A stretch of 64,000 nt of DNA. Source: Escherichia coli. GTDB lineage: Bacteria; Pseudomonadota; Gammaproteobacteria; Enterobacterales; Enterobacteriaceae. A program made the translations under genes and the position numbers. The notes beneath the pieces are model-generated. The model was given only the letters and a program-made list of their open reading frames with translations, was not told where the DNA came from and did no database searches. Numbering within the stretch: the stretch's first letter is position 1; each line of letters starts with the position of its first letter. The DNA lies in the NCBI RefSeq assembly GCF_046105845.1, contig NZ_CP151004.1, one strand, 5' to 3'. This document shows positions 7,672 to 8,355 of this stretch, piece by piece.

Positions 7672-8355
7672 TTATTTTTTGCTTCTTTTCTGCCGATTTT
7701 CAGCAGAGGGAAGATTGTCAAACTGAATATTTTCCATATTGATGGCTAACTTCAGATATCCCAGGTTATTTGGCGATACGCCCTTCAGAGTCAAATTAAT
7801 GTCTTGCCATTGACCTGGTAATAATTTCAATGTGGATTTCATTGAGGTGTTGAAAAGTAATTGTTGCCACCGGGCAAACTCTTTGGCATCGACAGGTTTT
7901 TCACCCCCCCATGTCGCATTAAAACCAATGTTTGAGATAGGTGTACTTAATAAGTTGACCAGTGAGATATGAATAACACTACCATTCTCTGTGGCGTCAA
8001 TGGATAACACTCGACCCGCTAAAGCAACCGAACCATTGTTCAGGATGAAATACTTCGTTTTTGCCGGGTTAAACTCGGTAAAAATAAAGGTATTTTGTTG
8101 GTCTTTAACGGATTTAATTACGTGAGTCAAAGTCTTTGTACTGTTTATTATGCCAGTTTGTTGTTTTTGAATAGTTTCCAGTTGACTCTTTAGCTGTGCT
8201 TGTTGTTTTTCGAGTAGCACAATTTTATTGTTATGTTCTTCTTGTTGTTTCAATAAACTACTTTCTGGCTTGCCTTCTTCAATGTAGTCACATCCCGTTA
8301 ATGCGCAGAGAACTGAAACAGTGACAGCACTGAAAAAAATCTTCTTCAAGTTCAT
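7672..8355 (-). CDS. SadB-like lipoprotein with coiled-coil segment, upstream of and co-oriented with the adhesin
   Basis: Signal peptide with lipobox LTGC (MNLKKIFFSAVTVSVLCALTGC); Gln/Leu-rich heptad segment LLKQQEEHNNKIVLLEKQQAQLKSQLETIQKQQ; 43-bp gap to adhesin start. Confidence 0.7.
   Translation of the reverse strand: MNLKKIFFSAVTVSVLCALTGCDYIEEGKPESSLLKQQEEHNNKIVLLEKQQAQLKSQLETIQKQQTGIINSTKTLTHVIKSVKDQQNTFIFTEFNPAKTKYFILNNGSVALAGRVLSIDATENGSVIHISLVNLLSTPISNIGFNATWGGEKPVDAKEFARWQQLLFNTSMKSTLKLLPGQWQDINLTLKGVSPNNLGYLKLAINMENIQFDNLPSAENRQKRSKK

Follow-up and report, generated by a model that had tools for sequence, protein, structure and literature searches.

A SadB-type lipoprotein gene upstream of a trimeric autotransporter adhesin gene in Escherichia coli

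Based on sequence search, fold comparison and gene order, we conclude that the 227-residue open reading frame at positions 7672..8355 (minus strand) of the window, i.e., the whole 64,000-nucleotide stretch of Escherichia coli contig NZ_CP151004.1 (assembly GCF_046105845.1) analyzed here, is orthologous to Salmonella SadB. It very probably encodes a periplasmic lipoprotein anchored in the inner membrane, which helps to display the adhesin encoded by the putatively co-transcribed gene downstream. The pair of sadB and adhesin gene is already known: the family has a name, a structure and an ortholog of described function, the pair has been published for pathogenic E. coli, and RefSeq carries a product name for it. 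Likewise, a dedicated biogenesis factor, as a first-pass annotation of this DNA had suggested, is no new proposal but the published conclusion for the SadB family.

Anatomy of the lipoprotein and comparison with Salmonella SadB

The reading frame starts with an ATG at 8355-8353, ends with a stop codon within 7672-7674 and has the same orientation as the adhesin gene. The first-pass annotation had listed a 227-aa ORF at this place without naming its strand, and had described for it a lipoprotein signal with the motif LTGC and a Gln/Leu-rich heptad segment. All three claims hold, the ORF being located on the minus strand. Its product consists of a signal peptide with lipobox, a coiled coil (approx. 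residues 31-87), a beta-sandwich C-terminal domain (C-domain, approx. residues 90-213) and a basic tail. The lipoprotein signal was called by inspection of motifs. The N-terminal sequence, MNLKKIFFSAVTVSVLCALTGC followed by DY, opens with the positively charged n-region MNLKK, continues with the hydrophobic core IFFSAVTVSVLCA and leads into the lipobox L-T-G-C at residues 19-22, so that Cys22 is followed by Asp23 at position +2 and Tyr24 at position +3. In an alignment of 16 SadB homologs, G21, C22 and D23 are invariant.

Behind the signal peptide, one unbroken heptad register of about eight heptads covers residues 31-87. Its a and d positions are occupied by E31, L34, Q38, H41, I45, L48, Q52, L55, L59, I62, Q66, I69, T73, L76, I80, V83 and Q87. 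Within the heptad stretch of 58 residues, Gln accounts for 11 and Leu for 7 positions, and the hydrophobic periodicity of the segment has its maximum at 3.5 residues. Four of the glutamines (38, 52, 66 and 87) are found at a positions of the core. Across the 16 homologs, the core of the heptads is kept, and Gln38, Gln66 and Gln87 with it, in agreement with the polar core reported for SadB. An AlphaFold2 model of the monomer, which has a mean pLDDT of 70 and is thus of moderate confidence, contains a continuous helix from residue 31 to 84 and the strands of a beta-sandwich between residues 102 and 206.

Family membership was settled by a sequence search of the PDB rather than by the curated HMM libraries Pfam and NCBIfam. 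Using phmmer, a single strong match was obtained (4c47_A, E = 2.4e-67), in which residues 30-227 of the E. coli protein align with residues 10-207 of the chain. The entry 4C47, titled “inner membrane lipoprotein,” contains SadB of Salmonella enterica, whose crystal structure was published in 2014 (Grin et al., J Biol Chem 289:7388, PMC3953254). Identity to 4c47_A is 52% over 198 residues, with 58% in the C-domain and only 39% in the coiled coil. A profile built from the 16 homologous sequences detected 4C47 with E = 4.2e-84; this alignment spans residues 23-227 and begins at Asp23, and it shows an identical Asp-Tyr behind the lipidated Cys of Salmonella SadB. When the AlphaFold2 model was compared with PDB structures using Foldseek, the three chains A, B and C of 4C47 ranked first (E approx. 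1e-20, 50-53% identity), followed by the E. coli paralog YajI (2JWY, E = 4e-4, 16% identity) and by weak matches to MATH domains of SPOP (E approx. 4e-3 to 2.5e-2). This ranking repeats the published hierarchy for SadB. Superposition of the model on whole 4C47 chains resulted in a large rmsd, because helix and domain are freely oriented to each other when only a monomer is modeled. Taken together with the synteny described below, these matches support the first-pass suggestion of a SadB-type lipoprotein, and the alignment with Salmonella SadB, which it had proposed as a check, reveals strong similarity to a protein of the SadB family.

In the crystal, Salmonella SadB is a trimer with a nine-heptad coiled coil, a polar Gln-rich core and three beta-sandwich domains (PMC3953254). 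The E. coli protein shares with it the C-D-Y motif, the Gln-rich coiled coil of the trimer type, the MATH-like beta-sandwich and the basic C-terminal tail. Besides the low identity of the coiled-coil segment, the two proteins differ in the composition of the core, since four Gln at a positions are accompanied by His41 at a d position here, but by two further Gln at d positions in Salmonella SadB. They also differ in their client, which is SadA in Salmonella and an EhaG/UpaG-type adhesin of 1808 aa here.

The adhesin gene and the presumed transcription unit

The neighboring gene at 2202..7628 (minus strand) encodes the presumed client of SadB, a protein of 1808 aa which is the positional ortholog of EhaG, UpaG and SadA. 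Searching Pfam, we found an ESPR domain (PF13018) at residues 1-48, 15 stretches of YadA_head (PF05658, E = 5e-55), 14 stretches of YadA_stalk (PF05662, E = 3.7e-131) and a YadA_anchor (PF03895, E = 5.9e-19) at residues 1748-1808. This domain order, with ESPR, YadA_head and YadA_stalk domains and a C-terminal YadA_anchor, identifies the product as a type Vc adhesin, i.e., a trimeric autotransporter. An identical protein from E. coli is deposited as WP_409023686.1, and RefSeq names at the same locus read either “ehaG: trimeric autotransporter adhesin EhaG” or “YadA-like family protein.” The position of the lipoprotein gene upstream of the adhesin gene, as claimed in the first-pass annotation, is correct; both genes are on the same strand and separated by 43 bp. 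Several plus-strand ORFs were noticed at 4777-6351, antisense to the tandem repeats of the adhesin gene, the longest of which has 396 aa (5079-6269). Their translations are repetitive and of low complexity, which suggests artifacts of repeat composition and not genes.

The order of genes in the window is lldP (128-1810), adhesin gene, sadB, yibL, yibT, mtlR, mtlD, mtlA, yibI and yibH, and the same order is found in annotated E. coli genomes. In Salmonella, sadBA is located between the mtl and lld operons as well, with a gap of 44 bp between the two genes (Grin et al., 2014; PMC3953254). Thus, the E. coli gene resembles Salmonella sadB in preceding the gene of a large trimeric autotransporter with an ESPR, at nearly the same distance and between the same operons. 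The pair of sadB and a trimeric autotransporter adhesin (TAA) gene was described for Escherichia, Shigella and Salmonella in 2014 (PMC3953254). In E. coli K-12 MG1655, yibL directly adjoins lldP and both sadB and the adhesin gene are absent, a joint absence which matches the observation of Grin et al. (PMC3953254). Two other differences in gene content were seen farther along the window. First, yibF follows yibH after 70 bp (15547-15618), and an approximately 10-kb RhsA element, which E. coli 19KM1831 carries at this point (RHS core protein, immunity genes and yibA), is absent here. Second, the interval between selB and aldB contains two tandem paralogs of Fe-dependent alcohol dehydrogenases (19730-20884 and 21245-22396) and a 431-aa ORF with a Fic domain (22526-23821); only yiaY is present between selB and aldB in the comparison strain.

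The spacer from the stop codon of sadB to the ATG of the adhesin gene (7629..7671, minus strand) contains an AAGGA motif resembling a Shine-Dalgarno sequence. No terminator-like site was found on the minus strand of this 43-bp spacer. Three weak terminator matches on the minus strand are located inside sadB and lack a T-run. The predicted RNA fold of 7600-7720 has a z-score of −0.69, and its only hairpin is formed by the coding end of sadB, the tract behind it being rich in A instead of U. Hence, neither the site scan nor the RNA fold revealed a terminator or attenuator in the junction of the two genes. Downstream of the adhesin gene, 145 bp after its stop codon, a hairpin of 13 pairs (6 GC) with a T-rich tail was detected at 2028..2057 (minus strand). 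As the only convincing terminator-like hairpin of the minus strand in the scan, read from 2057 to 2028, it is likely the end of the transcription unit formed by sadB and the adhesin gene. The short gap, the common strand, the lack of a terminator in the junction and the presence of a hairpin only after the adhesin gene are anatomical features consistent with co-transcription of both genes, which may thus form an operon. For Salmonella, the sadBA operon was likewise proposed as a hypothesis (Grin et al., 2014; PMC3953254).

Upstream of sadB, the 543 bp at 8356..8898 (minus strand) are AT-rich (33.3% GC) and presumably contain the promoter and regulatory region. An AAGGA motif is found 7 nt before the ATG of sadB. 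Of the sigma-70-like matches, TTGACA-18-TAGAAT at 8579..8550 scores best. Sigma-70-like sites are not enriched in the upstream region (10, compared with 12.8 ± 3.2 in shuffled sequences), and we regard this match as a candidate promoter only. A canonical terminator after yibL was not found. In an Rfam scan of 1900-9400, nothing was detected in or upstream of sadB, and only sub-threshold REP-like matches appeared after the adhesin gene. These were naRNA4, a family of nucleoid-associated sRNAs (2076-2116, minus strand, 36 bits compared with a threshold of 59.5), and STnc380 (1957-2066, plus strand, 31.5 bits compared with 60). They are situated beside the hairpin at 2028-2057 and are taken to be a putative REP-type element. 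The GC content is 37.7% in sadB and 33.3% in the upstream region, compared with 50.2% in the adhesin gene and 50.8% in the window. The AT-richness of sadB and its upstream region would be compatible with the repression by H-NS reported for UpaG, as cited in PMC5012682.

Probable role of SadB towards the adhesin

Salmonella SadB is a tri-acylated inner-membrane lipoprotein, and its co-expression increased the surface signal of SadA 4-6-fold and raised protease resistance, in sadA-expressing E. coli as well as in Salmonella, and changed aggregation behavior (PMC3953254). We infer by homology that the protein studied here, being 52% identical to this ortholog and having an identical anatomy in identical synteny, would play the same helper role, in this case toward the EhaG/UpaG-type adhesin. 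After Sec export, SadB would be lipidated on Cys22, and the Asp at +2, as a Lol-avoidance residue, would retain it in the inner membrane. Its Gln-rich N-terminal coiled coil would then trimerize at the membrane surface, and the trimer would expose its three MATH-like beta-sandwich domains on the periplasmic side. Probably produced from the same transcript as the 1808-aa adhesin, SadB would increase the amount of adhesin at the surface and its correct folding. The probable route is a transient association of SadB with the three adhesin chains while they are unfolded, which would aid their trimerization in register during export. This mechanism is a conjecture, and is hypothetical in the literature too, since Grin et al. 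(2014; PMC3953254) could show a direct interaction of SadB and SadA with neither phage display nor cross-linking.

The same negative interaction result could be taken as a sign that the lipoprotein, although a member of the SadB family, acts as a general envelope or periplasmic factor without being specific for the adjacent adhesin, as may be the case for its paralog YajI, which has no link to any autotransporter (PMC3953254). To this can be added that the anchor of the adhesin is 100% identical between loci in which SadB differs by 34%, i.e., both do not co-vary. Nevertheless, the distribution of the two genes argues for a specific connection. A junction query of 601 bp, comprising the 3′ end of sadB, the spacer and the 5′ end of the adhesin gene, was searched against 5426 complete E. 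coli genomes and matched 4149 of them. For 4140 of these, coverage of the junction reached 80% or more, always on the chromosome. Since both sides of the junction are present in all but a handful of the matching genomes, sadB and the adhesin gene almost never occur apart, and K-12, as mentioned, has neither. Furthermore, a survey of TAA neighborhoods from 2026 reported 106 SadB homologs, which were restricted to Enterobacterales and found only beside TAAs. Considering also the effect of SadB on display and protease resistance of SadA, a role without specificity for the neighboring adhesin appears very unlikely, and we prefer the reading of SadB as a helper of its neighbor.

In addition, divergent allele classes of the locus were examined, comparing the window at 2190-8892 with two other loci, L002 (13258-19994) and L001 (E. 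coli CFSAN061769). A cassette at approx. 2190-8892, which includes the upstream region, sadB and the passenger of the adhesin, is divergent between strains whose flanks (lldP, yibL) are 98-99% identical. Compared with the window, SadB of E. coli 19KM1831 is 66% identical and its adhesin 67%. The 543-bp upstream region cannot be aligned between allele classes. The last 100 aa of the barrel anchor of the adhesin are 100% identical in all three loci compared, and co-variation of SadB with the barrel anchor is ruled out by this identity. Within SadB, signal peptide and coiled coil together are approx. 48% identical between the allele classes and the C-domain approx. 80%. Coiled-coil length is not constant among the homologs either (P0093, P0041, P0067 and P0087 in alignment A1). 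A homolog from E. albertii has a deletion of 14 residues, corresponding to two heptads, and homologs from E. fergusonii and Pseudocitrobacter have a deletion of three residues, which would shift the heptad register. One might speculate that every allele of SadB is adapted to the passenger variant of its own adhesin, so that the helper would be allele-specific and not generic; we consider this unlikely. Alternatively, the divergence of the SadB alleles could be caused by hitch-hiking with a diversifying adhesin or surface antigen.

Relation to YajI and other proteins, and selection on sadB

The annotation of the gene is not uniform. Next to ehaG, newer RefSeq annotations carry the product name “SadB/YajI family lipoprotein,” while many RefSeq records, including that of the identical protein, read “DUF3251 domain-containing protein.” The representative of the 90% cluster bears a name from S. 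flexneri, but a Shigella origin of the window was rejected, as identical copies of both the lipoprotein and the adhesin are on record from E. coli. The DUF3251 names, together with weak matches to the Pfam family DUF3251 (PF11622, 18.5 bits) and the NCBIfam model for YajI (PRK11530, 20.4), may suggest a paralog of the YajI type in place of a SadB ortholog. However, both matches are below their cut-offs (23, the gathering score, and 158, respectively), and the protein is 52% identical to SadB but no more than 16% to YajI when the structures are aligned (approx. 14-16%). The E. coli YajI structure (PDB 2JWY, DUF3251) was missed in the PDB by phmmer at E ≤ 1 and by the 16-sequence profile at E ≤ 10; the link between YajI and SadB is consequently visible by fold comparison only. 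Moreover, yajI is located at yajC-secDF/nrdR without an associated autotransporter gene, and not between mtl and lld. Identity and locus thus rule out a YajI-type paralog, a reading to which we assign next to no probability, and the SadB protein found here is a distant paralog of YajI and not its ortholog.

Two other comparisons concern proteins with similar function or shape. According to the survey from 2026, SadB and TpgA are the only TAA helpers. TpgA, which assists AtaA in Acinetobacter, is also a dedicated helper of a trimeric autotransporter encoded beside its client, and the only other one described. In contrast to SadB, TpgA combines a BamE-like domain with a peptidoglycan-binding OmpA domain and binds to the barrel region of its adhesin. 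Neither a BamE-like nor an OmpA domain was matched in SadB by Pfam at E ≤ 0.1. SadB and TpgA are analogous, not homologous. The MATH domains of the eukaryotic proteins TRAF2 and SPOP have the same beta-strand topology as the C-domain of SadB, and the MATH domain of TRAF2 likewise follows a trimeric coiled coil, but sequence similarity is not detectable. The proposed mechanism derives from this resemblance to MATH domains, which is not evidence of membership.

Finally, the ORF could be a decaying, non-functional remnant in a horizontally acquired AT-rich island, as might be guessed from the low GC content of gene and upstream region relative to the window, from the absence of the locus in about one quarter of the E. 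coli genomes and its interruption by IS1 in at least one strain, and from an expression of the Salmonella operon below detection under laboratory conditions (PMC3953254), but the chance of this is minute and it is ruled out by intact features and synonymous-only divergence. The frame of 227 aa is complete with all features of the family, and the adhesin gene is intact as well, encoding 1808 aa. The identical 227-aa protein is encoded on at least 1000 public contigs. Compared with sadB of E. coli CFSAN061769, 16 nucleotide differences were counted, all 16 of which are synonymous and none non-synonymous, so that the proteins are identical. The alignment of the 16 homologs, which come from Escherichia species, Salmonella and Pseudocitrobacter, has 87 invariant columns, most of them in the C-domain. 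The exclusively synonymous differences, the invariant columns and the conserved heptad core together indicate purifying selection on a functional protein. Concerning the interrupted locus, the junction query matched the genome H21 (NZ_CP080075.1) in two pieces, and an IS1 family transposase is annotated under the match. The annotation of this genome lists a sadB homolog and, in addition, separate ESPR-domain and YadA-like ORFs, which suggests an interruption of the adhesin gene in this strain.

The value of these results is mainly one of annotation: the locus combines a clear SadB ortholog with an intact EhaG/UpaG-type adhesin, where many database records offer no more than the DUF3251 label.
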